A DNA stretch of 32,000 nt from Halomicrobium mukohataei DSM 12286. Its GTDB lineage: Archaea; Halobacteriota; Halobacteria; Halobacteriales; Haloarculaceae. Below, one piece after another: positions 4,217 to 21,631 of the stretch (position 1 is the stretch's first letter; each line of letters begins with the position of its first letter). The stretch is from positions 420,001 through 452,000 of the forward strand of contig NC_013202.1 in assembly GCF_000023965.1 (NCBI RefSeq), in the 5' to 3' direction. Below the pieces are notes generated by a model. That model had not been told where the DNA came from and searched no databases. It saw nothing but the letters and a program-made list of their open reading frames with translations. Both the position numbers and the translations under genes were made by a program.

Positions 4217-5239
4217 TCAGATCTGCTCCAGTTGCTTCTTTCGAACCGCCATCTTCTCCTGATTCGTTCGAACGTCGTAGTGCTCGTAGAGCACTTCCAG
4301 CGACACGTCACAACGCCCGCTAACAATCTCCGGAGAGACGTTGCTGTTCAGGTGGTACGTGATACTGCCACGGCGGATGCCGTGGGGTGATCGAGACGAC
4401 GGGCACTTGCTGAGGGTTGCTCCGGTCCCGAGGGCTTCGCAGGTGGACGGGTCCGATGGGTCGGCGTCGTGGGGACACCCGCCGATCACGCAGGGCCGGG
4501 TGAGCTTGTTCACCCACTTGTAGATCGTATCTCCCGTGGGCCGGCCGTGCATCGACGTAATGAGCGGCTCCCGACCGTGGTCGTCAGTGCGCTCGTAGCG
4601 GTCGGGGTTGTCGAGGTAGTCGTCGATAACCTGGTAGTTGTTCGGACCGAGGTAGACCCAGCGCTCGCCGTCTTCCCCGTTCTTGAGTCGCGTGCCCTCG
4701 TCGATTCGGTGTTCCAACACGAGCGCATTGTCGTCGGGGCGGAGGTCGTCGACGTCCAGCGATCGGAGGGCGGACCGACGCATTGCTGTCTTCCACAGGA
4801 TCAGGAAGACGACGTGATCCCGGCTCGCGTAGCGGTACTCGTGGAGGTAGTCGAGAATCCGGTGTGCGCGATCTGCCCCGATGTGGACATCCCGACTCTC
4901 TGCGCCGTCGGGCAGCTCGGGCGCGTGGACCTTCTCGGCCAGCCCATCGTCAACGCCCTCGATGTCGGCCCAGTACCGCAGGGCTTCACGGATCGTCGAG
5001 AGTTGCTTCTGCAGCGTCAGTGCCGCGATGTCGGACCGGCGCCACGCCACGAAGTCGGCTAGATCACGGCCGGTCAGGTGGTTCAGGTTCTCGATGTCCC
5101 GCAGCTCGCACCACTCCTCGAAGAACCGGAGCCGGGTTTTCGCGTTGCGCATGGTCGAGTCGCGCACGGACGGCTCGCAGTGCCGGAGGTACCGTTCGAT
5201 GCCCTCCTCCGGCGAGAGATCCATCAAATCGTCGCTCAT
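4217..5239 (-). CDS. int: Tyrosine recombinase/integrase (haloarchaeal provirus type), paralog of 27346..28356
   Basis: C-terminal catalytic boxes RSPHGIRRGSITYHL (H-x-x-R) and LYEHYD (Tyr nucleophile). 82/112 identical residues, hand-counted, with the second integrase over LSPEEG...SRDVH. ATG at 5239 (MSDDLMD..) matches the paralog's N-terminus better than the GTG at 5269. Confidence 0.85.
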   Translation of the reverse strand: MSDDLMDLSPEEGIERYLRHCEPSVRDSTMRNAKTRLRFFEEWCELRDIENLNHLTGRDLADFVAWRRSDIAALTLQKQLSTIREALRYWADIEGVDDGLAEKVHAPELPDGAESRDVHIGADRAHRILDYLHEYRYASRDHVVFLILWKTAMRRSALRSLDVDDLRPDDNALVLEHRIDEGTRLKNGEDGERWVYLGPNNYQVIDDYLDNPDRYERTDDHGREPLITSMHGRPTGDTIYKWVNKLTRPCVIGGCPHDADPSDPSTCEALGTGATLSKCPSSRSPHGIRRGSITYHLNSNVSPEIVSGRCDVSLEVLYEHYDVRTNQEKMAVRKKQLEQI

Positions 5240-5358
5240 GCTCGCCTCCGCTTTCGCTTCCGGTAGCACCCGAGACAGTGCGGCTCGCCGGGGTAGCAGA
5301 ACTCCTCACAGCCCTCCGTGGCGCACTTGTCCACGTCCTCGATGACGCGGTCGCTCAC
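5236..5358 (-). CDS. Possible 40-aa Cys-rich (zinc-binding-like) basic-tailed peptide coupled to integrase 1
   Basis: Hand translation gives VSDRVIEDVDKCATEGCEEFCYPGEPHCLGCYRKRKRRRA. Its TGA overlaps the int ATG (ATGA). It has only a GTG start and is too short for the ORF track. Confidence 0.3.
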   Translation of the reverse strand: MSDRVIEDVDKCATEGCEEFCYPGEPHCLGCYRKRKRRRA

Positions 5359-6267: not shown

Positions 6268-7056
6268 CTACTCCTCGGGCGTTAGTTGCCATCTTCTAGA
6301 ACTATCGAACGAACTGTGGCCGTTTCTTTCCATTTTCAATCCATAATTGGAGAGATCTGAAGATTCGATCGGAAATGTCACTACCTGTAGGTCTGATTCA
6401 TAGTCTCTGTCAGCAGATCCGCCAAATCTGGTTAAGAATCTATCTTCAACCTTTACTTCATTTATAATACTGTTGACTCCTTGCTCTTCAACAACCACTG
6501 GTTGGCCCTCAAAATACACAGATCCATTGTGCAGTAGACTTGTCTCACTCACTCGGTCGTTATATGCTGTTGCGTCTTCTGTCTGATCCACATCAACTAG
6601 AATTACCACAAATTGTGTCAGATCTTCTGTAACGTTGTCTCCTGTCAAATCCATAGGAACAACTTCTCCCTCGCCTGTTTCGATTGATCCCGTAGTATAC
6701 GCCCTTGTAACAGTAATCTCCAAGCCACCGATCTCTTGTGTGTCTCCTATTGAATGAGTTGAATTTTTGACCGCGAAAATCACTGCCCCCAGGCTTAGAG
6801 TGCCTACCGAACCAATCAGTATACTTCGACGTGTTGAGCTAATATCTTTGGACCCATCATTAAAACGACTATATTTTTTATAAAAATATTGAATCGCGGC
6901 CAAGATAACTGCAATAATCACAGAGATTATAAATGCGACTACAATGCCTGGTCCTAATATTGTGTAAATAAACGCAAAAGGCAGAATTAGGAGTCCTAAG
7001 GCATAGAAGAGATGGATGAGAAATCCGATTGGAGTGAATAAATACTTCAGTGACAT
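6268..7056 (-). CDS. Membrane protein: N-terminal TM helices plus an extracytoplasmic beta-rich domain; hypothetical
   Basis: Listed ORF in a visibly AT-rich block. Hydrophobic helices lie in residues about 8-60 and 78-96, followed by a Thr/Val/Glu-rich domain. Confidence 0.6.
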   Translation of the reverse strand: MSLKYLFTPIGFLIHLFYALGLLILPFAFIYTILGPGIVVAFIISVIIAVILAAIQYFYKKYSRFNDGSKDISSTRRSILIGSVGTLSLGAVIFAVKNSTHSIGDTQEIGGLEITVTRAYTTGSIETGEGEVVPMDLTGDNVTEDLTQFVVILVDVDQTEDATAYNDRVSETSLLHNGSVYFEGQPVVVEEQGVNSIINEVKVEDRFLTRFGGSADRDYESDLQVVTFPIESSDLSNYGLKMERNGHSSFDSSRRWQLTPEE

Positions 7057-8296: not shown

Positions 8297-9205
8297 TTAA
8301 TTCAGAGCAGCTTCCATCGCTGTACGGACCTCAGAGAGCGCCTCTCTGTTGTCATACTCGCCGTTCGTCACAGAGATGAATCCTGTCGATTCCTCCTCTT
8401 CCGGAACCCAGATCTGAATGAATCCCTGTGATCCCTCAATTACGGAGTCCTTCGATATCGGCTTCTGCCATAGCTGTGCCTCTCTTCCTCTGTACATGGG
8501 ATTAACTCCATCTGGCAGTGGTTTCGTGGTCTGGTATCGAAAGTCTGGGTCGTCGTCCAGTACCGAGAGAACATCACCGCTGATGATGGTGTCTCTGGCC
8601 GTCTGCTCAACTTCGTCGTAGAAGATGTCTGCGACCTTTCGAATGAGTTTTTCCAGATTCTTTGTGGGGACCAGTCGGTTTACGTCATCCAGAATCTCTG
8701 CTTCTTTCTGGGCGGGGGTCGCATTGAGTCCGACGTTGAGTTCCCCATTGCGGGGATCCCTGTAGAACGCAACATGTGCCTGCGCTTTTGATCCGGGCTG
8801 ATAGGTGTCGGGAATTCCAAGAAGAGCAGCATTCTCCAGTGATTTTACCACATCAAATTCCTTTGCCAGATACGCACGAAGAGCCATCATGTCATCCTTG
8901 CCCGGGGAAAGAGAAAGCAGAGAATACAGAGTATCACTGTCTGGATTATCGTCGTCGTAGAAGAATTCGTGTCGAGAATATCCATCGAGGGCTATCCATG
9001 TGAGGTGGTTTACCGGGCCATCGTCTGCAAAGATTACGTCTTCAACGCTGTGCTCAACCGCATCAGGGAATTCTTCAACGAAGATGTCTTCCAGTTGCTT
9101 GAAATCAGATTCTGGATCAATTTCGTACTCTTCAGGAACGTCTTCCAGCATTCGGTCGCGCTCTGATCCGGGCAGTAAAAAACGGTACGGTATGAAATGT
9201 TCCAA
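8297..9205 (-). CDS. Hypothetical 302-aa protein, third gene of the wHTH/glycosylase operon
   Basis: Listed ORF in low-GC DNA, 52 nt downstream of the glycosylase gene on the same strand. The start at 9205 is TTG; the next in-frame ATG is at 9151. No motif recognised. Confidence 0.6.
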   Translation of the reverse strand: MEHFIPYRFLLPGSERDRMLEDVPEEYEIDPESDFKQLEDIFVEEFPDAVEHSVEDVIFADDGPVNHLTWIALDGYSRHEFFYDDDNPDSDTLYSLLSLSPGKDDMMALRAYLAKEFDVVKSLENAALLGIPDTYQPGSKAQAHVAFYRDPRNGELNVGLNATPAQKEAEILDDVNRLVPTKNLEKLIRKVADIFYDEVEQTARDTIISGDVLSVLDDDPDFRYQTTKPLPDGVNPMYRGREAQLWQKPISKDSVIEGSQGFIQIWVPEEEESTGFISVTNGEYDNREALSEVRTAMEAALN

Positions 9206-9257
9206 TCGTAATTGTCAGCCTCATAGTACGTATCCCGTCATACCGTTGGAGACCTGC

Positions 9258-10046
9258 CTAGTCTGGTCTTCCCTGCTCTGATTCGTAATAACTGCAGGCA
9301 GAATTTAGCGGACACGAGGGACAGTCTGGATCTTCTGAAGTACAGACGAGGGCTCCGAGATCCAGAATAGCGAGATTGAAGCTTCGCGCGAGATCTGGAT
9401 CGTCTGGAGTGAGAGCCTCCATGAGGGCATATACGTCGTCGCTCTTGTGTGGCTGTGATGGCATCTCGTATCCCAGAACTCTTCCAATGACTCGTGCAAA
9501 GTTCGAGTCGACAAGTGCCATTGGCTGCTCCCGGGCAAACAACTGGGTTGCCCGGGCCGAGTAGTCTCCAACTCTCCACGGGCGTTTCAGCTTATCTAGA
9601 GAACCGGGTACCTCACCACCGAAGTCTTCTGTGAATATCTCTCCCACTTCTGTCAGAGTCCGTGTTCTGTGATTGACGAAACCAAGTGATCGGACCACAT
9701 CTTCAATTTCCCCTTCCGTAGCCTCTACCAGCGTTTCGGGATCCGGAAACTGGCGGAGAACGTCATCGTATATCTTCTCTACAGCATTACCGCGGGTACG
9801 CTGGAGTAGAATTTCGGCGAGATATACTTTCCATGGGTCCGTTGTCTCTCTCCAGAGATAGACTCTGCCGTTGGCTTCGAGCCAGCTCAACAGTTCAGGT
9901 ACTGTCTCAATGAACTCCTGAATCCTCTCTTCTGGCTGATTTACATTGCCTGTTTTTGCATGTTCTACAGCCAGATCTCTATCGACCAGTGAGTCTATTT
10001 CTTCTGCCGAAACCTCTGTTTTACCGAACGGCAATCTGAGACCCAT
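9258..10046 (-). CDS. HhH-GPD DNA glycosylase with [4Fe-4S] cluster loop, MutY/Mig (T:G or U:G mismatch)-like
   Basis: LAEILLQRTRG (compare MutY EVMLQQTQ). HhH region VGDYSARA has Tyr where EndoIII has Lys and MutY has Ser. Catalytic-Asp block LVDSNFARVIGRVLG. Cys loop C-x7-C-x2-C-x5-C (CTSEDPDCPSCPLNSAC). Confidence 0.8.
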   Translation of the reverse strand: MGLRLPFGKTEVSAEEIDSLVDRDLAVEHAKTGNVNQPEERIQEFIETVPELLSWLEANGRVYLWRETTDPWKVYLAEILLQRTRGNAVEKIYDDVLRQFPDPETLVEATEGEIEDVVRSLGFVNHRTRTLTEVGEIFTEDFGGEVPGSLDKLKRPWRVGDYSARATQLFAREQPMALVDSNFARVIGRVLGYEMPSQPHKSDDVYALMEALTPDDPDLARSFNLAILDLGALVCTSEDPDCPSCPLNSACSYYESEQGRPD

Positions 10047-10048
10047 AT

Positions 10049-10303
10049 CTATCGCTTCAGGTCCTCGATCAGTTCGTCACCCTTCTCCGTAGAAGTCCAT
10101 AGGCGTCCTTTCTTTTTTTCTGGTGTTATACACTCAGCGAGGCCGTGACTATCGAGATCAGATAGAACATTGCTCACATGGCTCAGATAGTAGTCTGTTA
10201 TTTCGGAGAGTTCCTTTGGAGTTCGGGGTTTCTCGTCCATGGCGAGAAGGAGCTTCTCCCGGTACTCACTCGCCTTCACCCACGAGTATTCCTCAACGTC
10301 CAT
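10049..10303 (-). CDS. Small winged-helix (ArsR/MarR-like) regulator, possible controller of the R-M cassette
   Basis: 84 aa. PRTPKELSEITDYYLSHVSNVLSDLDSHGL has an HTH-plus-wing pattern. Its stop lies 2 nt before the glycosylase ATG. Divergent from the methyltransferase gene. Confidence 0.7.
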   Translation of the reverse strand: MDVEEYSWVKASEYREKLLLAMDEKPRTPKELSEITDYYLSHVSNVLSDLDSHGLAECITPEKKKGRLWTSTEKGDELIEDLKR

Positions 10304-10419
10304 TCAGGCGTGTGGATAGGCCGCAGCAAAGTATTTAACTTGGTTACAATATACACACAAGATAGCCACATGAACCGGATAGGAACTTTAAACGATCACG
10401 ACTCCATTGGTGACTACAG
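10304..10419. promoter_or_regulatory. Divergent promoter region between the wHTH operon and the MTase gene
   Basis: TTTAAA at 10387-10392 lies 28-33 nt upstream of the MTase ATG. TATTTAA at 10332-10338 (TTAAATA on the minus strand) lies 29-35 nt upstream of the wHTH ATG. This spacing fits leaderless archaeal transcripts. GGATAGG occurs twice (about 10311 and 10378), and the 12-mer AATATACACACA sits at 10348-10359. Confidence 0.5.
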
Positions 10420-11778
10420 ATGAGCGAAGAACGGCTTACAGCTATCGACCTGTTCTGTGGAGCCGGCGGACTTTCTCAGGGGCTTCACGATGCGGGATTT
10501 GAGACACTCTGGGGCATTGATCACGAGGAGAATACCAAGCCAACGTACGAGGCAAACCACGACTGTGAGATGACGGTCGGAGATATCCGGGAAGAAGAAC
10601 CACCGGATCTCGGACTGGAGGAGGGAGAACTCGATCTCGTCGCAGGTGGGCCGCCCTGTCCGACGTTTTCACTTGTGGGCCGGAGCAAAATCAATTCTAT
10701 CGAGGGCCGGGACAACCAGAGCGACGATCGTCATCTACTGTACGAAGACTTCCTCCGTTTCGTAGATCACTACCAGCCCAAAGCCTTCCTGATGGAGAAC
10801 GTCGAAGGGATGCTCTCGGCAGAAAATGAAGACGGAAAGCCGGTCGTCGATACCATCAAGGAACAGATGCGTGGAGAGCGAGAAGTTGCAGATCTTGACC
10901 TCGATCTAAATTACAGTGTTCGAGTCCAGCTGCTGGATTCAGCAGACTACGGGATCCCCCAGCACAGAAAACGTCTCTTCTTCATCGGTAACCGTATCGG
11001 CGAAGAGAATCCGGACATGACTGAGTGGGAAACCCACCGGAAGCCGAAGAACGAGGAAGAGAAGAAAATCAAATACAAGGAAGACCCATCAGAGCGATCT
11101 GAGGAAGACCAGTCCACATTGCACGGGTTTGTGGATGAAGATGGGACCGAAGAGTTCCCTGCCTTCCGCAAAAACAGACAGAGCAAGGAGCCATGGAACA
11201 CAGTAGCTGATGGCATTCTCGATCTTCCTCCTGTTTCCCCCAGTGGAGATACACCACCGACCAAAGCAGAAGAATACGAGATTGGTCCCGTCTCAGAATT
11301 CCAGTACTGGGCACGGAATCTCAGCGAGGAACAGGACTGGGAAGATCAGCCCCTTCTAAATCACGAGTGCCGGGGACACAACATGCGTGACCTCACCCTC
11401 TACAAGCTCCTCGGGGAGGGTACCTCGTACATCATCGGAGACATCCCAGAAGAGCACCAGCCGTATCGGACCGACATCTTCCCGGACAAGCTAAAGAAGC
11501 AGAACCCGAAAGAACCTGCAACAACGATTGTGGCCCATCTCTACAAGGACGGGCATATGTTCATCCACCCGAACGAGGCTCGATCGATTACGGTGCGGGA
11601 AGCTGCTCGACTTCAGTCTTTCAAAGACACCTTCGAGTTCCCGGTCTCACGTACACACGCATTCAAACAGGTCGGTAATGCCGTCCCACCACTTCTGGCA
11701 CAGGCTTTAGCCACTGCTATCCGAACAGAAATCTTCCATTCCCCAGTAGAGAGAACTGAACCTCGAGAGGCTTATTAA
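10420..11778 (+). CDS. DNA (cytosine-5)-methyltransferase
   Basis: Motif I DLFCGAGGLSQG, motif IV GGPPCPTFS, motif VI ENVEGM, motif VIII QHRKRLFFIG, motif IX REAARLQSF, motif X GNAVPPLLA. A long Lys/Glu-rich variable region lies between VIII and IX. Confidence 0.95.
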   Translation: MSEERLTAIDLFCGAGGLSQGLHDAGFETLWGIDHEENTKPTYEANHDCEMTVGDIREEEPPDLGLEEGELDLVAGGPPCPTFSLVGRSKINSIEGRDNQSDDRHLLYEDFLRFVDHYQPKAFLMENVEGMLSAENEDGKPVVDTIKEQMRGEREVADLDLDLNYSVRVQLLDSADYGIPQHRKRLFFIGNRIGEENPDMTEWETHRKPKNEEEKKIKYKEDPSERSEEDQSTLHGFVDEDGTEEFPAFRKNRQSKEPWNTVADGILDLPPVSPSGDTPPTKAEEYEIGPVSEFQYWARNLSEEQDWEDQPLLNHECRGHNMRDLTLYKLLGEGTSYIIGDIPEEHQPYRTDIFPDKLKKQNPKEPATTIVAHLYKDGHMFIHPNEARSITVREAARLQSFKDTFEFPVSRTHAFKQVGNAVPPLLAQALATAIRTEIFHSPVERTEPREAY

Positions 11779-11789
11779 ATACACTAACT

Positions 11790-13445
11790 TTAGTCTTCTC
11801 TACTCAGCACCTCTTCGATATTATTGAACGTTAACCGCGGCTGCTCTTCGGTGTAGGTTTCAACTTTGAACGGATGCCACTCTTCTAATATTATCATCTT
11901 GTCACGGTCAGTGTGTGCTCTTGCAAATGTATATCCGCCGTCATTCCACTGTGATCCACCAGCCTCATAGATCTCTTTTTGCTTCCAAGCATCACAAACA
12001 CTGCCAAGTGGGCAGGTCATGCAGAGGGCACCTCGGCGATTACCCAGAGTACTACCGACTGACCACAAGATATGATCCAGCTCTGCTGGTGCTCTGCTAA
12101 CCTCAGCCGCCAGTTCTTGCCATACTCGCCGACATACTTGATCGAGGTCACTGCGCTGAAGTTCTATTCCCTCTTTAGTGACCTCTTCTTTCTTCCCATC
12201 TTTACTAGCTTCGAATGTAACGTCTTCTTTGGCAGTTGTTTCTATCTTTAGTAGTCCGAGATTCAGAGTGACACGGATTATTTGTGCATCTACTGGCAAA
12301 TTAAAATTTTCAACTTGGTCCCGACTCACGCCGTTGAGAAGATCATATCCACGCTCATTTTTTGTCATTAACGTGAATAGTAAACGGCCAATTTTCTTTG
12401 AAAATGAAAACTGTATCCCTATACGATCTCTTGCATCTTCTTTGTCAAATTTTTCAATTTTTGATTGAACCTTCTCTAAGGCATCTGGATCTGAGGTATT
12501 GACACCCAATTCGTTTGCAATCTGTTCAAAGAAGGTTCTTGGGTCACCATTACATCGATCCCGTAGATACCGAATCATAGCTATCCAGTCTCCGATTACT
12601 CCTTCAAAAGAACGACGCAACAGCCCAGAGATCCGATTTAATATGATTTTTAGAATCTTTTCTCTTTCACCATCACTCATTTCTAACAAAGTGTCCCACT
12701 CCTCTGAATCGGGTTGGAAGAGAAATGGATACTTAGACTGAAGGTCCAGTAACTCAGAAATGAATACTTCAGATGGAGCGGTATTTCCATAATCTTGTAA
12801 TGATCGAATAAACAGGAATGTTGCCTGCTCAACCTCATCTGGTATCTGTTGGACAACTTCTTCTCGTTTCGAGCCGCCTTTCATTTGCTGAATAAATACT
12901 TCTGTTTCGTCTGAATCAAATGGATCTATTTCAGCAATCTCCTCTATTTTCTTTTTTGAGATCCTTCCCTTGAACCGGAAATTCTCTCTACTCCTCATCA
13001 GCTCAAATTCGCTACCATCTGACTTCCCTACAAATTCAACGTCATATGCTTCGAATGAGTAGCCACTCCAGAGATAGAGAAGATTTTGAAACTTAATTTT
13101 AGAATGTTGGACAAGATCTACAGAGTTTGTTGCTTGGGCTATATCAACAAGTAATTTTTCTATTGCACTACTAATATCTGTGTTTATCTGTCCAGATATA
13201 GACGCATCATAAAGTCGGACCTTATCTTTTCTGTCGTATGTTGTGATACTATAATTCTTAGCAGTTAGGTCTATGTCCCATCTATCAACTTCATCTAAAC
13301 ATTCACTTACTCTACTTATCACCTGTGTCTTGAGACAATCTGTGTGGTTTTCGATCAGACTATTATCCTGAATGTCCTTTTCTTTTGGAATATCTATGAC
13401 AAGTTGGATAGAATTCTCGAACGAGCGACCATTAGAGCTGTTCAT
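11790..13445 (-). CDS. Uncharacterised 551-aa protein; the C-terminal roughly 200 aa resemble an HhH-GPD-superfamily (DUF2400/EndoIII-like) domain with a Cys loop
   Basis: Listed ORF with ATG start, 9 nt after the stop of the upstream 357-aa gene. KKIGRLLFTLMTK...NLPVDAQIIRVTLNLGLL resembles the PxD-x4-RV-x3-LGL block of EndoIII/TIGR02757-type proteins. CMTCPLGSVC gives C-x2-C-x5-C. The N-terminal half has no recognisable motif. Confidence 0.65.
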   Translation of the reverse strand: MNSSNGRSFENSIQLVIDIPKEKDIQDNSLIENHTDCLKTQVISRVSECLDEVDRWDIDLTAKNYSITTYDRKDKVRLYDASISGQINTDISSAIEKLLVDIAQATNSVDLVQHSKIKFQNLLYLWSGYSFEAYDVEFVGKSDGSEFELMRSRENFRFKGRISKKKIEEIAEIDPFDSDETEVFIQQMKGGSKREEVVQQIPDEVEQATFLFIRSLQDYGNTAPSEVFISELLDLQSKYPFLFQPDSEEWDTLLEMSDGEREKILKIILNRISGLLRRSFEGVIGDWIAMIRYLRDRCNGDPRTFFEQIANELGVNTSDPDALEKVQSKIEKFDKEDARDRIGIQFSFSKKIGRLLFTLMTKNERGYDLLNGVSRDQVENFNLPVDAQIIRVTLNLGLLKIETTAKEDVTFEASKDGKKEEVTKEGIELQRSDLDQVCRRVWQELAAEVSRAPAELDHILWSVGSTLGNRRGALCMTCPLGSVCDAWKQKEIYEAGGSQWNDGGYTFARAHTDRDKMIILEEWHPFKVETYTEEQPRLTFNNIEEVLSRED

Positions 13446-13454
13446 TTTGATAAT

Positions 13455-14528
13455 TCAGGTATTGTCGGTGAGTCCCGTGAATTCTACAATGTCCTCGATA
13501 AACTCGTCTGCTGGACGGAGTGTATACGAGAGATCTGAGTCGTCTTTATAGCGATTCCAGACGAAAGAGTCTCGCGGTACATAGATTCTGCTGCCGTCAT
13601 TGCTGATGTCCTGTACTTTCTCTCTGGAAACGTCTGCCATGAGTAGCGAAACGAACCAGACCTCGTCAACCCCTATCTCGGCTTCCCGTGAGAGACTCTG
13701 GCGAAATCGCTCTCGGAGAGTTCGTTTGCAGGAGAATCCAATGCTGCCCTCTGGTCCTTCGACCATGTTGTCTATTTCGAGATCTCCGAAATGAGCAGGA
13801 TCGCCTGTGGCGGGAATTCCAAACTGATCGAAGATGTACTGCAGACCGGTCTCAAGCACGTTCCCTGCCGTAGATGCTCGACTCTGTCCCGCACGACGTT
13901 CGTATTCCTGAACAATGCCAGAGACAATCCTCGCTACTTCTTTTTCCTCGATCTGTGGGTCCGACCGGAGATCTGCCATCTTCTCATAGATGTAATCAAT
14001 GAGCGGCTCCCGCTGGGCACCGAGCTGGTAGGCCTCTCCCTCGAAGTCAACGTTGAACAGGGCATCGTAGGTTCTGGCCGGATCTAGGGTCCCAGATTCT
14101 GTCTGGAGGGTTTCATCGACTATTTTGATGATCTCTGACTTGCCGAAGCTCGGCGTAGTTTCCAGAATCTCACTGGTTCGGACCACTGCATCTATCGCAA
14201 TTCGAAATTCGCGGATGTCATCCTCTGTGTCGATCCGTCGAAGGATCCGCTCAACGAGATCTTCGGTTTGTCTGTATCGTTTTGAGACGTCACCGGCATA
14301 CGTCTTATTGACAGAATCCGTGATCGTATCCCGTATTATGCGCTTTTGCCGGTCGAGAGATGAATCGCCACTGAACCGTTCGTCTTCGAGTTCCTCACCC
14401 AGCCGTGTTGAAAGCTGCTTGAGTGTTGGCTTCTCTTTTTTGGCGTAACTCCCGTAACTGGAGGCGATGAGATCTCGCGCAAACCAGTACACCTTGAACT
14501 CGGAGGGATCTCCGGAATAATCTGCCAT
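13455..14528 (-). CDS. Putative type II restriction endonuclease, Cfr10I/NgoMIV/EcoRII-C-like PD-(D/E)xK catalytic domain with an unknown N-terminal domain
   Basis: ERRAGQSRASTAGNVLETGLQYIF, then GDLEIDNMV, then GFSCKRTLRERFRQ (S-x-K-x-T-x-R-E-R, compare Cfr10I SVKTSLRPDR as I remember it), then ...IYVP. It lies next to a C5-MTase, which is the partner type of that family. Confidence 0.55.
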   Translation of the reverse strand: MADYSGDPSEFKVYWFARDLIASSYGSYAKKEKPTLKQLSTRLGEELEDERFSGDSSLDRQKRIIRDTITDSVNKTYAGDVSKRYRQTEDLVERILRRIDTEDDIREFRIAIDAVVRTSEILETTPSFGKSEIIKIVDETLQTESGTLDPARTYDALFNVDFEGEAYQLGAQREPLIDYIYEKMADLRSDPQIEEKEVARIVSGIVQEYERRAGQSRASTAGNVLETGLQYIFDQFGIPATGDPAHFGDLEIDNMVEGPEGSIGFSCKRTLRERFRQSLSREAEIGVDEVWFVSLLMADVSREKVQDISNDGSRIYVPRDSFVWNRYKDDSDLSYTLRPADEFIEDIVEFTGLTDNT

Positions 14529-14641
14529 CTATCATCGGCGAGGTGAGATAATCTGAAGAAAATAGATTACATCTTAAGCATAATATACACACATCTCCCC
14601 ACTCTCGTCCCGCGAAAATAATCTGTAGCTATCTGTAAGTA

Positions 14642-14899
14642 TTAGCGCCAACGACTTTCCACGCTCGTCCGATAGCGTAACCCGATCACGCTCGTGTTGA
14701 ACCGCTGGATCGTCTCGGGGTCCAGCTCCCCACGCGCGCTGTCGATGTTCTCCTTGCTCTCGACGAGGTGGGTCAGCGCCGCATCCAACACGTCGGACAT
14801 CGGTGGGTCGTCGTGAGGGGCGCTGGCGACGATCGCGCTGGCTTTGTCGAGGAGTCGCTGCCGTTCGTCGGTGATCTTCAGGCTGGTGCGTCGAGTCAT
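14642..14899 (-). CDS. Hypothetical protein (possible ribbon-helix-helix-like N-terminus)
   Basis: Listed ORF with ATG start. SLKITDERQRLLDKAS looks like a beta-strand plus helix. It is the first GC-rich gene after the low-GC cassette. Confidence 0.45.
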   Translation of the reverse strand: MTRRTSLKITDERQRLLDKASAIVASAPHDDPPMSDVLDAALTHLVESKENIDSARGELDPETIQRFNTSVIGLRYRTSVESRWR

Positions 14900-15041
14900 G
14901 GTTTAAACTGGTGTATGTACGGGGGGTCGAATCGCATCGCTCGCGAGTGAGCGACTGGGTGGTTCTTGATAAACGGGGGTCGGGGGTCCGGCGTGATCGG
15001 TCCGAACCGTCGGCCCGACCGGCTCGAATCTATGCACCGTA

Positions 15042-15062
15042 GCCCACGGCCCACAGCCCACA
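15042..15062 (+). repeat. Tandem heptamer (GCCCACR)x3 enclosed by the 8-bp inverted repeat TATGCACC/GGTGCATA (15031-15038 / 15063-15070)
   Basis: Read directly: GCCCACG GCCCACA GCCCACA. The flanking arms are exact reverse complements. Confidence 0.8.
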
Positions 15063-15122
15063 GGTGCATACATCGAGGATCGGCGATACATCTGGCTCGA
15101 ACCCCGTGGGGTCGGGGTCGCA

Positions 15123-15305
15123 TCATGGGCTGACCAGCTCTAATCTGTAGTCGCCCTCGTTGTTCTCGTCGAGGGACTGGACCTTCGCCCAGTGGTCGCC
15201 ATTCAGCTCGCCATCCTCGTCGACGATCCCGCGTTCGCGAAGATCTTCGATCGGAATCGAGACGGTTACACAGCCGCCCGCCGGAGAGAGTTTGCGCATC
15301 TCCAT
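15123..15305 (-). CDS. Small protein, possible AbrB/SpoVT-like DNA-binding fold
   Basis: 60 aa. GGCVTVSIPIEDLRERGIVDEDGEL resembles the swapped-hairpin pattern. Divergent from the structural operon. Confidence 0.4.
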   Translation of the reverse strand: MEMRKLSPAGGCVTVSIPIEDLRERGIVDEDGELNGDHWAKVQSLDENNEGDYRLELVSP

Positions 15306-15330
15306 GCTGCCGGCCCTGCAGTCTCGTTAC

Positions 15331-15336
15331 TTTAAT
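15331..15336. promoter_or_regulatory. TATA-like box TTTAAT (ATTAAA on the minus strand) in the divergent region
   Basis: Lies 26-31 nt upstream of the minus-strand ATG at 15305 and about 33-38 nt upstream of the plus-strand GTG at 15369. Confidence 0.4.
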
Positions 15337-15431
15337 CCTCGGGTGAGTCCCGCTAATCCCGTGATTCGGTGCTTTCTAGGAGGTCGACTGCACCCGCCGA
15401 ACACGGTCGCAATCGGCGGCCGGGTTCCACC

Positions 15432-15863
15432 ATGTACGGAAAGATCGACATCGAAGACGCGCTGTTCGGCACCATCTTCGCCGCCAGTGCGTTCGTGACG
15501 AACGGAATCGCGACGATCAACATCCTCGGGAACGACCTGGGCGCGGCGGTGTGGACCGGACAGGGAACGGAGATCACCTTCGCGTTCCTGCTGACGCTGG
15601 TGTCGCTGTTCGGAGCCTACGCGACGAATCGCGTGAACCGCTCCAGCGGGAAGTCCTACGAGATCGACACTGACCTGGCGAACATCGCCCGCGGTGAGGC
15701 ACCGATCGAGACGTACCTCGCCGTCGGAACGGCCCTGCTCGTCCTCGTGACCGGGCTGAACATCCTCGGCGCGCAGGAAGTCATCGCCGGCACCGCCGCG
15801 TTCGGCCTGGTCGTCGTCGCCGTCGAGGCCTCGGGCTACTACGTCATCAGCTACATGGGGTGA
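15432..15863 (+). CDS. Small integral membrane protein (pleolipovirus VP3-like position)
   Basis: Four hydrophobic helices. Its stop overlaps the next start (GTGA). ATG 15432 was chosen; the alternative GTG 15369 would add an Arg-rich 21-aa extension. Confidence 0.6.
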
Positions 15864-16105
15864 TCCTCGTGAGGCTCGATACACTCCTCGGCTACGGCCT
15901 GCTCGGCACTATCGGCGTCTCCGCCTCGACGATCGCCGCCGCTGTCGTCGGCCAGCCCTTCCCCGTCGTCGTCCCGACGATCTTCGCCGCCGCCGTCGTC
16001 GCCGCCCACCACGTCCGCACGAAGGACTCCGATCCATCCGACGACCAGCTCGACGACGCGACCGGCGACGCTCCAGCCGTCGCTACTGATGGGGGCCGGC
16101 AATGA
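15860..16105 (+). CDS. Small membrane protein
   Basis: GTG start overlaps the upstream stop, and its own stop overlaps the next ATG (ATGA). Two hydrophobic helices and an acidic tail. Confidence 0.5.
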
Positions 16106-17874
16106 GAGACCGACAGACGATCACCCGGCGCGGGCTGATAAAGACCGTCGGCGGGACGGCCGCCGTCGGGGCCGGGCTCAGTGCCACCAACGGCACGGCC
16201 ATCGATCCCGTCGGAGAGGCTGACGCCATCGCGTGTGGCGGTGCTTGTCTCGTCGCGGTCGGCATTGCAGGAGCGGCCGCCGTCGGCATGGTCACTGGTG
16301 CGGTTGCCGCGCATCATCTCGGACAAAAGCGTCAGGACGAACTCAGCGGGAGCGAGGAGACTGCCGACCTGCACGCCAATCTTCGCAGCCGACTCACAGC
16401 CCTTAAGGCCGCCAACAACAGCGTTCTCACGGGCGTGCAGAACCGCATCAAAGACGCCCGAAACGTCGCCTGGCCCGAGGCGAAGAAGGAGGCCATCAAG
16501 GCGTTCAACAATGGGGACGACAAGAGCGCAGTCAAGACCGCCGGCAAAGACCCTGTCGACGCGCACTATGTCACCATCCAGCAGAACATCCTGAACCGCG
16601 GGACCGAGTGGGCTAACACTATCCAGTACATCACTGACCTGCACGAGTCCGACTCCGGGCTGTCTCAGCCCGACGGCGGCACCCCGGCGTTCCGCATCAC
16701 GTCAGAACACAACTACGATGGCTCGTCCCGACAAGTCACCCTGTCGCCACACGAGTTTTCGATGCTGGAGACGACGACAACCCTCGTCGACGGCCAGTCG
16801 TTCACGCACAAAATCATCCGGGCTAACGAGTCCGACAACAGCACACCGAATTTCCAACACGAAGTCGACCTCGACCCGACCGGTATCACCGGTCGCATCA
16901 CCGACGGTTCCTCGTCCTGGGCTGGTGTCGCCTCGGCTACCGTCGATCCGGTCGAGACTGGCTCGACGGCCACCTGGCTGAACCTCGGTGCCTGGGACTC
17001 CGCCTGGTCGGCCATCGTCGACGACCACAGCCAGATGGTGAGCAATATCCAGACGTTCGTCGAAACGCTGTTCGAGAACCACAGCCCCGGCGACATCGAC
17101 GTGAGCGAATACATCGACGCGACCACCCTCGCTAGCGAGTTTGCAACCGACTACGAGAATACCGGATACCGCGCCTACGCGGCCGCTGAGGCCGCAGTCG
17201 CAGGGATTCCGGGCAGCATGGACCAATCCATGCAGATCCGTCTCGAAGACTCTGGCATTGAGGTGCGCGGATCGGTCTGGACCGAGTGGCGTCCCTACGA
17301 CGGATCGTCGACGGCCACCACGACCGAGACCGCAACCGAGACTGCGACCGAGACCGCGACCACGACCGAGACCGAGCCGGCGAACTCGGCCTTCGAAGTC
17401 GGCACTACCTACGACCCCAGCAACACGAACAAACTGGTGTTGATGAGCTACGAGTTCCAGGGCGAAGGCTGGATTCAGGGCTCCGATGTGTTCGTGAAAG
17501 ACGACTCCGACAACTGGACGCAGGACACCAATATTACCAGCGCCGACGGATGGACCGCCCTCGACGGCGAGAAGATCCAAACCGGGTACGGCGAACTGCA
17601 ACAGCCGTTCACTATCCTCTCGGCACAGGATACTGAGACCGGTGAGGACGTGGACGTGGTCGGGACCGAATCACGCAATCATCAGACGGCTGAGGTGGAT
17701 CTGACCGAGGAACAACTGCAAATGATCCTCGACTATCGCAAGACGGTGCGTAACAACGACAGCCCTGGCGGTGGAGGCGGCGGGGCCGGCTTCCTCGGCG
17801 GTGGCTCAATCGATCCAACAGTTGCCGGCCTCGTCGCGGCCGGGTTGGTTGGCCTCGGTCTCCTTAGTAGGTGA
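16102..17874 (+). CDS. Secreted, membrane-anchored envelope/spike-like protein (pleolipovirus VP4-like position)
   Basis: Tat-type signal TRRGLIKTVGGTAAVGAG, a Thr/Glu linker, a Gly run and the C-terminal hydrophobic anchor VAGLVAAGLVGLGLLSR. Confidence 0.75.
   Translation: MRDRQTITRRGLIKTVGGTAAVGAGLSATNGTAIDPVGEADAIACGGACLVAVGIAGAAAVGMVTGAVAAHHLGQKRQDELSGSEETADLHANLRSRLTALKAANNSVLTGVQNRIKDARNVAWPEAKKEAIKAFNNGDDKSAVKTAGKDPVDAHYVTIQQNILNRGTEWANTIQYITDLHESDSGLSQPDGGTPAFRITSEHNYDGSSRQVTLSPHEFSMLETTTTLVDGQSFTHKIIRANESDNSTPNFQHEVDLDPTGITGRITDGSSSWAGVASATVDPVETGSTATWLNLGAWDSAWSAIVDDHSQMVSNIQTFVETLFENHSPGDIDVSEYIDATTLASEFATDYENTGYRAYAAAEAAVAGIPGSMDQSMQIRLEDSGIEVRGSVWTEWRPYDGSSTATTTETATETATETATTTETEPANSAFEVGTTYDPSNTNKLVLMSYEFQGEGWIQGSDVFVKDDSDNWTQDTNITSADGWTALDGEKIQTGYGELQQPFTILSAQDTETGEDVDVVGTESRNHQTAEVDLTEEQLQMILDYRKTVRNNDSPGGGGGGAGFLGGGSIDPTVAGLVAAGLVGLGLLSR
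17311..17376 (+). repeat. In-frame ACC-GAG-ACY-GCR repeat encoding TATTTETATETATETATTTETE
   Basis: Read directly from the sequence inside the spike-like gene. Confidence 0.8.
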
Positions 17875-17881
17875 TCTGACT

Positions 17882-18409
17882 ATGAGATTTTTCGTATTCA
17901 TCACGGCAGCAGTCGTATCGCTCGCGCTCCTTACCGTGCCGATCGGGGCGACCCCGACCGACTCGGGCAACGCGTCGACGGCCAGCCCAGACGGCGAGCG
18001 GATCGACGGCGCGACCGTGCTGGTCAATTCGGAGTGGAGAGAGGCCCAGAGTGTCGCGCTCATCACGCTCCGGTCCGAGATCAATCAGACCGTGACCCTC
18101 ACCGACGCGGGAGCGTTTTCCCAGGGCGGCACGGTGCCAGAGCGCACAGTCGAAATCGAGGCCGGCGAGACGACGCACATCGAGATCCCTGTTACCGAGG
18201 TGAGCGGGCGTGTCGGCGTCGGTATCTCGACGCGCTATACGCTCTACTCCGAAATCATTGAAAGCGGCTCTGGCGGCGGCCTCGATATCCTCCGCGCACT
18301 CTCGTCACTCCAGGCGTGGCTCGCTGGCGCGGCGATCGCCTTCGTCTGGATGGCCATCGCCGGCTACAACGTGATCCGCCGCGAGAACGGCCGGCCGGAG
18401 GTGGCCTGA
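17882..18409 (+). CDS. Secreted protein with N-terminal signal peptide and C-terminal TM anchor
   Basis: MRFFVFITAAVVSLALLTVPIGA signal. C-terminal AWLAGAAIAFVWMAIAGY helix followed by basic residues. ATG 17882 lies inside listed ORF 17771..18409. Confidence 0.65.
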   Translation: MRFFVFITAAVVSLALLTVPIGATPTDSGNASTASPDGERIDGATVLVNSEWREAQSVALITLRSEINQTVTLTDAGAFSQGGTVPERTVEIEAGETTHIEIPVTEVSGRVGVGISTRYTLYSEIIESGSGGGLDILRALSSLQAWLAGAAIAFVWMAIAGYNVIRRENGRPEVA

Positions 18410-19204
18410 ATGCCCGCCCCGACATTCCAGACGAACCGGGACCGACTGACGTGGCTCCTCGGCGAGTACAAGCTGCTCGTCACGGGCATGATCCTCGGCG
18501 CGGTCGGGCTGGTGATCTACTACCAGCCACAGCTCCCGACGCCGCCGGCCTGGATCGCTGGCGTCCTCGTCGGCTGGCTCCTACTCGGAGTGCCGTGCTA
18601 CCTCGTGGGCGCGAAGATCGCTCGGTGGCTCCGGAACCGCAACTGGATCGAGGTTCACCACGTCAACGCAGCCGAAGACACCGTCCAGAAGCACTACGTC
18701 CCGCCGCAACTCTGGCGCGAGAAGGAGATCGAAGGGCCAGATCCGTACCCGATCAACGGCGGCAGCGCCTGGGCCGTTCGGGAGTACGAGTACCTCGACG
18801 ACATCGAACAGGTTCGGGTTCAGGGTGTCTGGCTCGAAGGCTGCCAGGACACCCAGCTCATGACCAGCAAGAAGCAGATGGAGGACATCCACGGCTGGCT
18901 CATCGATCGCGCCGAGGAACTCGCTGCCATCCGCGGGCGGTGGTCCCGTGGTGCCGTGGAACTCCAGAAGAAGCTCGTCACCGCCGAGAGCGAAGCGAAC
19001 GAACGCGGCCAGATGATCCAGAAGACCGCCGCCAAGGACACCTTCGGCGACCTCGTCGACGACGGCGAAGACTTCGACGAAGCGCCGACGATCCACGATC
19101 TCGACGACCACGACCCCACCGCCGACGCCGTCGTGGGTGATGGGCCCGCCGACGTGTCAGTTCCCGACCAACAGAACCAGAACCCCCAAATGAACGATGA
19201 CTGA
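18410..19204 (+). CDS. Membrane protein (two N-terminal TM helices, acidic C-terminal tail)
   Basis: The ATG directly follows the upstream TGA. TM helices LLVTGMILGAVGLVIYY and WIAGVLVGWLLLGVPCYLVG. Confidence 0.65.
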   Translation: MPAPTFQTNRDRLTWLLGEYKLLVTGMILGAVGLVIYYQPQLPTPPAWIAGVLVGWLLLGVPCYLVGAKIARWLRNRNWIEVHHVNAAEDTVQKHYVPPQLWREKEIEGPDPYPINGGSAWAVREYEYLDDIEQVRVQGVWLEGCQDTQLMTSKKQMEDIHGWLIDRAEELAAIRGRWSRGAVELQKKLVTAESEANERGQMIQKTAAKDTFGDLVDDGEDFDEAPTIHDLDDHDPTADAVVGDGPADVSVPDQQNQNPQMNDD

Positions 19205-20369
19205 CGATAGTGGCGACCTCTACACCCCGGCACAGTTCCGCGAGTACCAGGACGGCTACGGCCAGCGCGAGCCCGACGAGACCCACGCGCACGCCGGGAT
19301 CGTTCGCGACGAGAAGCTATCGCGCTATCTCTCGATCCTCGAAACACACTACGATCCACAGCGCTGCGACCGGCCGGCGAAGATGCCCGGTCAGGCAAAG
19401 GATCTCCAGCACGTCCGAGATATCGTCCGGATCGAAGGCACCGAGACGGCTCGTCGTGCCCTGGAAAACGGCGACATGCAGTCGCTCAAGCACTTCACCG
19501 GCGACGCCGGACAGCGTGCGGACATCTCCGGAATCAAGGCGATCGACCAGCTCCGCGCACAGATGACCGGCCCGGCACCGATGTTCTACGAGTGGGCCGA
19601 ACCCGGTACGGGGAAGTCGAACTTCGCCTGTCTACTCGGCCAACTCTGGAAGGAGCAGCACCCCGACGGGCTCGTCGCCTCGAACATCCGAACACTGGAG
19701 GAAACCGACGAGTGGACCGGCGACGACGGCGACCGACGGGACGGCTGGCTTGCGAACTACGGAGACCTGAACGAGTGGCTGAAACAGGACGGTGACCCGA
19801 TGCACAACACGCAGTCGCCGAAGCTGTTCATCTTCGACGAGGCATCGAGCAACGCTGGCGGTGGCGGGAAGGACGGCTACGACACGAAGACGAAGCTGGG
19901 GCCGCTCACCTACAAGATCCGCAAGTATGGCGGGTCGTTGATCGTCATCGGTCACGACGGCCGCGACGTACACCCGCTCGTTCGTGAGCTTGCCGTGTGC
20001 GTCCACAAGGAGGGGCTGAAGGAGGCGACCTTCTACGAAGACGTGAAGGGTCGCTCGGGCGTGAACGAGATCTTCTCCGTGTCGGGAATCCCCGAAACGG
20101 ACTGGCGATACGACGACAAGGAGCCGACGACGTGGTCGTGGTCAGGCGGTGAGGAAGACGGCGACGAAGTCGATCCCGCCGACCTCTCACGGAAGCTCGC
20201 CGTCTACACCGTCATCACTGCCAAGGAGGCAAACCCGGAGAAACCAAACCACGAAATTGCCGATTTCGTTCCCTACAGCGCCGAATGGGTCCGACAACGC
20301 TGGAACGAGTACCAGCACGACGGCGACCATCGCAACGTGGTTGGCGACGTGGAGGGACTAACCGCATGA
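19197..20369 (+). CDS. P-loop NTPase (pleolipovirus VP8-like position)
   Basis: Walker A EPGTGKSNFA, Walker B KLFIFDEAS. The start overlaps the upstream gene by 8 nt. Confidence 0.8.
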   Translation: MTDDSGDLYTPAQFREYQDGYGQREPDETHAHAGIVRDEKLSRYLSILETHYDPQRCDRPAKMPGQAKDLQHVRDIVRIEGTETARRALENGDMQSLKHFTGDAGQRADISGIKAIDQLRAQMTGPAPMFYEWAEPGTGKSNFACLLGQLWKEQHPDGLVASNIRTLEETDEWTGDDGDRRDGWLANYGDLNEWLKQDGDPMHNTQSPKLFIFDEASSNAGGGGKDGYDTKTKLGPLTYKIRKYGGSLIVIGHDGRDVHPLVRELAVCVHKEGLKEATFYEDVKGRSGVNEIFSVSGIPETDWRYDDKEPTTWSWSGGEEDGDEVDPADLSRKLAVYTVITAKEANPEKPNHEIADFVPYSAEWVRQRWNEYQHDGDHRNVVGDVEGLTA

Positions 20370-21181: not shown

Positions 21182-21631
21182 TCAGGGTGTTGGCAATTCT
21201 TTATGGGGACACTCTCTACTCCCGACTTCAATGTAAGGTAAATTGTCTTCTTCGTCAGTTCGTTTGTATATCGAGATATCTGTCTGTCCCCCAGAGCAGG
21301 GATTGTCGACACGTGCCGTGATGTAGGTGGGCAGTCGGGGGCACTCAAGCACGACCTCGACTTTCGATTGGGACAACGGATCGATCGACCCGACTTGTGC
21401 CTCACAGATCACTCCGTCACTATCATACCCGACGAAGGAGACGTTCTCAAACCGCTTCCATTCTTCAGTCCCACTTCGCGCAGTTGCCTCGGCAGTAAAC
21501 GATATTTGATTCCCGTTGACCGCTGTATCACGTATAGTGAGAGTTCGATAATACGAGCTACCGAAGCAGCCTGCAGTGGCGCTTACGGCGGCTGATACGC
21601 TCAACAACCGCCTCCGGCTTATTTTAGTCAT
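21182..21631 (-). CDS. Tat-type lipoprotein, hypothetical
   Basis: MTKISRRRLLSVSAAVSATAGC has a twin-arginine motif plus the lipobox TAGC. ATG 21631 lies two codons inside the GTG start of the listed ORF and overlaps the upstream gene's end by 8 nt. Confidence 0.65.
   Translation of the reverse strand: MTKISRRRLLSVSAAVSATAGCFGSSYYRTLTIRDTAVNGNQISFTAEATARSGTEEWKRFENVSFVGYDSDGVICEAQVGSIDPLSQSKVEVVLECPRLPTYITARVDNPCSGGQTDISIYKRTDEEDNLPYIEVGSRECPHKELPTP

Follow-up and report, generated by a model that had tools for sequence, protein, structure and literature searches.

A gene for a 551-residue protein, carried by the restriction-modification (R-M) cassette of a provirus in Halomicrobium mukohataei DSM 12286, belongs to a new family within the HhH-GPD superfamily of DNA glycosylases, one that by their defining tests lies outside the AGOG, EndoIII/MutY and PabI groups and probably also outside ROS1. 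We analysed the gene within a stretch of 32,000 nucleotides (contig NC_013202.1, positions 420,001 to 452,000; hereafter the window). Profile and model comparisons give its product a glycosylase fold with conserved catalytic residues, its relatives are nearly always found beside DNA methyltransferase genes, and in the window it takes the place that an endonuclease gene holds in a sister cassette. We tentatively favour a reading in which the protein serves restriction within a module based on cytosine methylation, as an effector that would excise bases, nick the resulting abasic sites by an apurinic/apyrimidinic (AP) lyase activity, and be blocked by methylation.

The gene is an intact open reading frame (11790..13445, minus strand), and its product is identical to WP_012807978.1 (ACV46585.1; UniProt C7NXZ7) of H. 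mukohataei. An earlier note, made from the sequence of the window, had described it as lying 9 nucleotides behind a gene for a 357-residue putative restriction nuclease, and the coordinates agree: the TGA of the 357-residue frame (13457-13455) and the ATG of the 551-residue frame (13445-13443) enclose a gap of 9 nucleotides (13454-13446). This spacing, together with the shared strand, suggests that the two genes are co-transcribed. The peptides quoted in that note were likewise located, KKIGRLLFTLMTK at residues 350-362, NLPVDAQIIRVTLNLGLL at residues 382-399 and CMTCPLGSVC at residues 475-484.

Fold, key residues and relatives of the 551-residue protein

Because a word-indexed protein search returned just two proteins, with the single sequence and with a profile alike, an exhaustive HMMER search was needed, and this identified 16 related clusters among 1.84 billion representatives. 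The family, which consists of WP_012807978.1 and 15 metagenomic clusters, is thus extremely rare, and no relatives of the 551-residue protein were found in 185,579 species-representative genomes or in plasmids, phage records and IMG/VR contigs. Searches with the single sequence gave Pfam AGOG at E 0.11 (12.3 bits) and NCBIfam mutY (TIGR01084) at E 0.037 over 55 residues, nothing in PADLOC (2023) or PHROGs, and noise only with phmmer against the PDB, while a BFVD fold search returned one unnamed match with a low template modelling (TM) score. An AlphaFold model built from 17 sequences reached a predicted local distance difference test score (pLDDT) of 81 and a predicted TM score (pTM) of 0.81, as against a pLDDT of only 39.6 for a two-sequence model. 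The following features were assigned:

11976..12848, minus strand: HhH-GPD/AGOG-like glycosylase domain, residues about 200-490 (Foldseek, profile against the PDB, BLASTP)
12960..13445, minus strand: N-terminal alpha/beta domain, residues 1-162 (AlphaFold 2 secondary structure and pLDDT, family alignment)
12393..12395, minus strand: codon of K351, invariant, at the start of the second HhH helix; candidate Schiff-base (AP-lyase) nucleophile
12288..12290, minus strand: codon of D386, within NLPVD, invariant; candidate catalytic Asp
12159..12251, minus strand: three-stranded beta insert, residues 399-429 (AlphaFold 2 strands 399-404, 407-415 and 418-429)
11994..12044, minus strand: iron-sulfur (Fe-S) cluster-loop region, residues 468-484 (G468 x6 C475 x2 C478 x5 C484)

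The sole significant PDB match of the AlphaFold model was Pa-AGOG (1xqp; Foldseek E 9.4e-4, probability 1.00), aligned over 320 columns with a TM score of 0.51 on the target. When the family profile was compared with the PDB, it matched ROS1 (E 3.5e-5 to 7.6e-5), Pa-AGOG (0.002-0.008) and many MutY chains (about 0.01-0.09), in alignments that are collinear from the Asp helix through the Cys/Fe-S loop. In addition, residues 272-495 are matched (BLASTP E 1e-13) by a 288-residue AGOG-like protein with a Cys loop, encoded next to a YaaA-type gene in locus L005, which itself scores 25.0 bits against Pfam AGOG, just under the cut-off of 26.1. On these profile and model comparisons, an AGOG-like HhH-GPD domain occupies residues about 200-490 and carries an additional loop of EndoIII type. 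The earlier note had proposed a glycosylase-like part, of EndoIII/TIGR02757 type, from about residue 330 onwards. Both the profile searches and the AlphaFold/Foldseek comparison do find the two-lobed, helical HhH-GPD fold; however, it begins near residue 200, so that only residues 1-162 are unmatched, TIGR02757 (DUF2400) gave no match at E up to 1, and the nearest relative is AGOG.

The two candidate catalytic residues do not vary among family members that are about 30% identical. D386, invariant in alignment A7, stands at the N-terminal end of the helix that follows the Gly/Pro-rich loop; it is aligned with D172 of Pa-AGOG and with a ROS1 position occupied by Asp in 7yhq but mutated to Asn in chains 7yho/7yhp. 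K351 corresponds to the invariant column K152 of the same alignment and lies in a model helix spanning residues 350-360; we take its role to be that of EndoIII K120, OGG1 K249 and Pa-AGOG K140. The PDB alignments stop short of this residue, and its equivalence to AGOG K140 is presumed. C475, C478 and C484 are invariant in the family, and the loop that they form aligns to the cluster loops of MutY and ROS1. Most relatives carry the full C-x6-C-x2-C-x5-C, which agrees with the earlier view of CMTCPLGSVC as holding three of the four ligands of an EndoIII loop; Gly stands at the first position in the window protein, P0002 and P0006 (alignment A2). Judging from these residues in their modelled setting, the protein is probably catalytically competent, and we predict a bifunctional enzyme with glycosylase and AP-lyase activities.

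Two further parts vary among family members. The beta insert (399-429) directly follows the catalytic-Asp helix, is specific to the family and differs in length among members. Residues 1-162 gave no confident structural or sequence match, with Foldseek returning only weak, generic alpha/beta similarities, and this N-terminal domain is partly or wholly missing from the shorter members; it may serve to recognise DNA sites or to mediate interactions.

Comparison with the known groups sets the family apart from AGOG and EndoIII/MutY and probably also from ROS1/DEMETER. Pa-AGOG (PF09171; 1XQO/1XQP), the best structural match, has the non-canonical HhH-GPD fold in common with the 551-residue protein, as well as the aligned Asp and, if the presumed equivalence to K140 holds, a Lys at the start of the second HhH helix. 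AGOG is a housekeeping 8-oxoguanine repair enzyme of about 250 residues that has no Fe-S loop, and it lacks the N-terminal alpha/beta domain, the beta insert and the methyltransferase linkage of the new family. The AGOG Pfam profile matches 13 of the 17 family members weakly (best E 1.2e-4), in every case below the gathering threshold (for the 551-residue protein, 12.3 versus 26.1 bits). EndoIII and MutY share with most members the C-x6-C-x2-C-x5-C loop after the glycosylase core, and with the family the PVDxxxxRV motif at the Asp, but the family is about twice their length, has another genomic context and gave no PF00730 match for the window protein or any of the 17 members at E up to 1; in the window protein, moreover, the four-Cys loop is incomplete, the first Cys being Gly. 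ROS1/DEMETER (7YHQ, 7YHO) gives the best sequence-profile match in the PDB (E 3.5e-5); the alignment, of about 110 residues with hardly a gap, starts at the catalytic Asp, crosses a long spacer and reaches the Fe-S loop, and it covers only the C-terminal half of the glycosylase domain. Both ROS1/DEMETER and the new family are tied to cytosine methylation, though the plant proteins are large, with additional domains. The substrate of the 551-residue protein is probably not that of ROS1, because excision of 5-methylcytosine (5mC) beside a resident Dcm-type methyltransferase would be self-destructive.

A swap slot beside a restriction endonuclease gene

The R-M cassette of the provirus has a swap slot for restriction-side cargo. 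In addition to the 551-residue gene, the cassette region of the window holds the following genes:

9258..10046, minus strand: MutY/Mig-like HhH-GPD glycosylase, 262 residues, with a full Cys loop (PF00730 E 4e-15)
10049..10303, minus strand: winged-helix protein, 84 residues, first of a winged helix-turn-helix (wHTH)-Mig pair divergent from Dcm (weak wHTH Pfam matches)
10420..11778, plus strand: C5-cytosine DNA methyltransferase of Dcm type, 452 residues (PF00145 E 1.7e-63; TIGR00675)
13455..14528, minus strand: PD-(D/E)XK restriction endonuclease of Ecl18kI/EcoRII-C/PspGI type, 357 residues (Pfam EcoRII-C E 2.5e-4)
14642..14899, minus strand: DUF7386 protein, 85 residues, upstream of the nuclease (Pfam DUF7386 E 3e-45; phrog_7612)

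Across halophile loci the cassette runs from the nuclease gene through the slot to a convergent Dcm gene, beyond which lie the wHTH and Mig genes, and the content of the slot varies as follows:

L019-L022 (four genomes): empty
L012 (9071-9775) and L014/L015 (L014 9069-9797): BsaWI-like endonuclease, 234-242 residues
L016-L018 (L016 2637-3344): BsaWI-like endonuclease and a 210-residue gene
L013, Halalkaliarchaeum (9225-14543): four genes, including a P-loop NTPase
The window and metagenomic contig L001: the 551-residue gene

The exchange is seen most directly in the sister provirus of Haloarcula taiwanensis (L012), which shares about 80% DNA identity with the window over 16031..13473 and 11723..9266; homology is lost exactly across the 551-residue frame, where L012 holds an RE_BsaWI endonuclease gene that overlaps the nuclease gene by 4 nucleotides. 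A BsaWI-like gene occupies the slot in five loci, and the hosts with this gene include, besides Haloarcula taiwanensis, Salinibacter, Haloferax, Natronomonas and Haloarcula vallismortis. In L001 it is the family gene that overlaps the nuclease gene by 4 nucleotides, and in the window the stop codons of the 551-residue gene and the convergent Dcm gene are 11 bp apart. With a GC content of 40.8%, compared with 51.6-53.2% in the flanking cassette genes and about 62.5% in the surrounding viral genes, the 551-residue gene is foreign cargo within the cassette. We also noted that the sister cassettes combine two endonucleases with one methyltransferase, and that the window Dcm includes a variable stretch (193-364, about 170 residues) which fails to align with the Dcm of non-halophile loci; one idea is that a multispecific Dcm would explain the two endonucleases.

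The 262-residue Mig-like protein, the first glycosylase of the locus, matches TIGR01084 (mutY) at E 1.9e-40, below the cut-off, and the PADLOC 'Type II nicking endonuclease' profile at E 2.2e-34; presumably it repairs thymine-guanine (T:G) mismatches. The 84-residue wHTH gene is kept in L001, L012, L013, L016-L018, L020 and L022. The DUF7386 gene occurs at the same position in L012 and, as blastn matches to Harhisp1 and HRPV9 show, in pleolipoviruses as well; it may open the nuclease operon or regulate it.

The cassette as a whole sits in an integrated betapleolipovirus-like provirus (window 4217-25626), whose landmarks are an integrase (4217-5269), structural genes (15369-20369) and DUF7845 (23869-25626). 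Positions 15.3-20.9 kb, with spike, NTPase and VP1-family genes, are about 77% identical in DNA sequence to Haloarcula hispanica pleomorphic viruses 3 and 4 (HHPV3, HHPV4) and Harhisp1. The cassette is not present in isolated viruses on record, and no tRNA gene was found in the window. Three other genes of the provirus deserve mention. A predicted membrane protein of 262 residues without a family match (6268-7056, minus strand) has a GC content of 41.2%, as low as that of the 551-residue gene and far below its surroundings. An acidic 302-residue open reading frame (8297-9205, minus strand), likewise without a family match, lies between Mig and an Orc1/Cdc6 gene in a region missing from the otherwise syntenic L012, which makes it a second window-specific insertion. 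Finally, a 618-residue protein with bacterial TSP3 (calcium-binding) repeats (21624-23480, minus strand) marks a second low-GC stretch (49-53%) of the provirus region.

The putative restriction nuclease of the earlier note turns out, by profile and conserved residues, to be a real endonuclease of Ecl18kI/EcoRII-C type. In the PDB its family profile matches R.Ecl18kI (E 2.2e-4), EcoRII (EcoRII-C; 0.0067) and PspGI (0.17), and its SCKRTLRER segment is aligned with SAKTTLRER of Ecl18kI, with K268 and R272-E273-R274 invariant; we take these to be the catalytic Lys and the CC:GG-reading residues of CCNGG/CCWGG endonucleases. The nuclease family is common, with 97 clusters in a first search and 184 relatives in species-representative genomes. 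A role for the 551-residue protein as a dedicated specificity subunit, which the earlier note had offered as one option, is unlikely because the nuclease is so widespread without it, occurring in about 100 clusters and in 11 halophile loci that lack the 551-residue gene. For the same reason we rejected the idea of an obligatory nuclease subunit, and a relationship or shared domain between the two proteins was also rejected (hhalign probability 0.5%). In bacteria the nuclease has homologues of about 28% identity in many phyla (L024-L094). In nearly every case a gene of 250-300 residues lies upstream and overlaps the nuclease gene, and only L051 among these loci matched the Dcm seed used, which suggests that the bacterial nucleases have a different partner gene.

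Could the protein instead be a non-catalytic DNA-binding or base-flipping sensor that works with the 357-residue nuclease, perhaps bringing it to unmethylated or mismatched sites or licensing it there? The tight coupling of the two genes, by 9 nucleotides here and by the overlap in L001, would fit, as would the loss of the first Fe-S ligand among halophile members and the nearby presence of some nuclease in other loci (PDDEXK_1, UvrD-nuclease, NurA-like, beta-CASP, MvaI/BcnI). We nevertheless consider this very unlikely: the catalytic Asp and Lys are invariant despite the low identity among members, the nuclease is widespread and complete without the 551-residue protein, the partner proteins vary from locus to locus, and the two proteins have no sequence relation.

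Genomic company and possible role of the family

Further family members were found in the following contexts:

L002/L003: helix-turn-helix (HTH), 530-residue and family genes in one direction, Dcm convergent; Mig
L096: family and Dcm genes in one direction, with Mig and a 530-residue homologue on either side in the other; UvrD-nuclease fusion in the Mig operon
L097/L098: beta-CASP nuclease, 228-residue, Vsr and family genes in one direction, Dcm convergent
L004: HTH and family genes in one direction, a Vsr-Dcm fusion convergent; island with DarTG
L011: family and 576-residue genes in one direction, Dcm and Mig convergent
L101-L103: family gene, convergent with HerA-like, NurA-like, 308-residue, AAA, Mig and Dcm genes
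L006: family gene divergent from an N4/N6 methyltransferase with an MvaI/BcnI endonuclease; no Mig or Vsr
L008: family gene and Mig-like gene; 7.7-kb contig without a methyltransferase

Counting the window and L001, a methyltransferase gene lies within 5 kb in 9 of 10 informative contexts (eight of Dcm type, one of N4/N6 type) and a T:G repair gene, Mig or Vsr, is present in 8 of 10. The homologues are thus not, as the earlier note had allowed for, mostly outside R-M or defence contexts; nearly all lie within methyltransferase or defence contexts.

Several features of these loci lead us to favour a restriction role. The 551-residue gene replaces an endonuclease gene in a slot that is translationally coupled to the nuclease gene. 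Five loci (L002, L004, L011, L096 and L098) have a methyltransferase next to which no endonuclease of a classical kind was detected, which makes the family protein the obvious candidate for the restriction (R) gene there. A small HTH gene directly precedes the family-containing operon in L002 and L004, just as controller proteins precede toxic R genes. Members are very rare, and they have diverged faster than the neighbouring methyltransferase, with 39-42% identity among family proteins as compared with 51-56% among the Dcm proteins encoded alongside them; such divergence is typical of restriction genes. Finally, the occurrence of an N4/N6 (N4-methylcytosine/N6-methyladenine-type) methyltransferase as partner, besides those that make 5mC, fits blocking by methylation better than it fits 5mC-specific repair.

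We infer the activity of the protein, its substrate, its blocking by methylation and its toxicity, and envisage the following course of events. The protein would be expressed from a DUF7386-nuclease-551 operon alongside the Ecl18kI/EcoRII-C-type endonuclease and would bind DNA through its HhH motif, with the N-terminal domain and the beta insert aiding the choice of site. A base of an unmethylated target site would be flipped into its pocket, D386 would cut the N-glycosidic bond, and K351 would nick the abasic site through a Schiff base. Methylation by the convergent Dcm would protect resident DNA, so that unmodified invading DNA alone would be damaged, and abasic sites and non-ligatable ends would supplement the clean nuclease cuts. 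AP-lyase nicks, as in bifunctional HhH-GPD enzymes, are predicted from the conserved Lys at the HhH nucleophile position. The ends so produced would resist resealing by ligase, as has been argued for PabI enzymes (PMC10273834).

Several observations weigh against this restriction role. The first Fe-S ligand is absent from the window protein (Cys to Gly, G468), a loss shared by the halophile members, and the window already encodes an autonomous endonuclease, which makes a second R gene superfluous. The family gene is co-transcribed with repair genes, Vsr in L097/L098 and a Mig-like glycosylase gene in L008, and no methyltransferase lies within the 7.7-kb contig of L008. A sequence-specific R protein would need a specificity matching that of its Dcm, yet the halophile member has been inserted beside a distantly related Dcm, which shares only 34-37% identity with the Dcm proteins accompanying other members and whose variable region cannot be aligned with theirs. 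To our knowledge, moreover, HhH-GPD enzymes do not read sequences of 4-6 bp.

The same observations bear on whether the protein might serve repair, as a glycosylase that accompanies cytosine methyltransferases and clears away a lesion linked to methylation but beyond the reach of Mig and Vsr, thereby limiting the mutational cost of the methyltransferase to the mobile element. Examples of such lesions would be uracil-guanine (U:G) mismatches from enzyme-driven deamination, 3-methylcytosine as a side product of the methyltransferase, and oxidised 5mC. Dcm together with Mig or Vsr is the constant company of the family, including the operons shared with Vsr and with the Mig-like gene, and possible helpers in excision repair lie nearby (the UvrD-nuclease in L096, the beta-CASP nuclease in L098). 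The nearest relatives, AGOG and the 288-residue AGOG-like protein, are repair enzymes, and a lesion-specific enzyme would need no matching sequence specificity, which would explain the insertion beside a distantly related Dcm. We think a repair role unlikely all the same. The family is extremely rare, whereas pairs of Dcm with Vsr or Mig are very common; the gene belongs to the nuclease operon rather than to that of wHTH and Mig, and occupies what is otherwise the place of an endonuclease; in L006 it also adjoins an N4/N6 methyltransferase without Mig or Vsr; several loci would be orphan Dcm modules that lack a restriction gene yet have two or three glycosylases; and the family diverges faster than the methyltransferase.

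Still less probable is a stand-alone antiviral glycosylase that would excise a modified base of competing viruses, in the manner of the HhH enzymes called 'Dag' and of Brig1, and act independently of its R-M neighbours, the gene having simply dropped into a provirus hot spot for defence cargo. Antiviral glycosylases of the HhH superfamily have been reported, some of which cluster near AGOG (bioRxiv 10.1101/2025.10.29.685425), as has Brig1 (PMC11078745), and the 551-residue protein resembles them in being encoded on mobile elements and in defence islands. The varied content of the slot (empty, BsaWI-like gene, four-gene NTPase cluster or 551-residue gene) would be in keeping with this, as would the defence islands at neighbouring loci (DarTG in L004, GmrSD in L020), a pleolipovirus-like host element to which superinfection exclusion would pay, and the top profile match to ROS1, a glycosylase for a modified base (5mC). 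However, Dag and Brig1 work on their own against modified phage bases, no methyltransferase partner having been reported for them (the Dag enzymes being compared by their published description), and a modification-dependent enzyme needs none, yet a methyltransferase accompanies the family in 9 of 10 contexts and Mig or Vsr in 8 of 10. Nor did PADLOC, PHROGs or the phage and viral-contig collections yield any match.

Among systems with a glycosylase in or near an R-M module, the Mig.MthI-type T:G glycosylases (REBASE 'V' genes), one of which is encoded at 9258-10046 here, are HhH-GPD proteins of Dcm modules. The Mig profile aligns with the family over only 43 columns at the Cys loop (hhalign E 2.9e-4, probability 40%), and the family differs in its conserved Lys and extra domains and in accompanying Mig or Vsr instead of replacing them. 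The logic proposed for the 551-residue protein is like that of R.PabI, a base-excising enzyme capable of AP-lyase action that is paired with a protective methyltransferase (PMC4357717, PMC5388411, PMC10273834). R.PabI, however, has the unrelated HALFPIPE fold, a partner that makes N6-methyladenine, and adenine as the excised base, and no PabI-family structure was among the 50 listed Foldseek matches of the 551-residue model. A 2023 review of base-excision restriction enzymes gives PabI as the sole such family and does not mention HhH enzymes; a literature search for restriction glycosylases combined with HhH-GPD found no paper, and one for methylome or R-M data on Halomicrobium found nothing useful.

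A separate family of 530-576 residues (L002 2560-4152; L011 3877-5607; L096 7584-9188; L019 4280-5932; L020 10648-12288) accompanies Dcm-Mig modules with or without the 551-residue family, and follows Mig in L019 and L020. Sequence searches of Pfam and the PDB gave no match for this family, whose members carry the motifs IPIDTW and C-x2-C-x5/6-C as well as a conserved Lys; a weak, collinear alignment with the Mig profile (hhalign E 6.5e-4, probability 28%) tentatively suggests another divergent HhH-GPD protein. It is possible, if doubtful, that the 551-residue family, perhaps with this second one, represents a second class of restriction enzymes acting by base excision, one that evolved independently, is built on an HhH-GPD/Fe-S fold and not on HALFPIPE, and would pair with cytosine methyltransferases and T:G repair genes and be carried by an archaeal provirus among other elements. 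In L101 (3543-10433), the operon convergent with the family gene comprises a 130-residue gene, Dcm, Mig, an AAA ATPase with faint BrxC/STAND matches, a 308-residue gene, a weakly NurA-like 326-residue gene and a DUF87/HerA-like ATPase; its make-up suggests a multi-gene system for defence or repair that is linked to methylation.

Implications for restriction and repair

Restriction by base excision has so far been known from a single fold, that of PabI, and is thought to give breaks that are unusually hard to repair. If the restriction role of the 551-residue family is true, the HhH-GPD repair fold would be its second origin, and repair glycosylases would be convertible into weapons that depend on sequence or methylation state. 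This would explain several methyltransferase modules in which no endonuclease was detected, and might provide a new class of enzymes for detecting unmethylated cytosine sites. If instead the family serves repair, there would be a methylation-linked lesion beyond the T:G mismatch whose removal mobile Dcm genes require. On either reading, the family is a defined and testable target.

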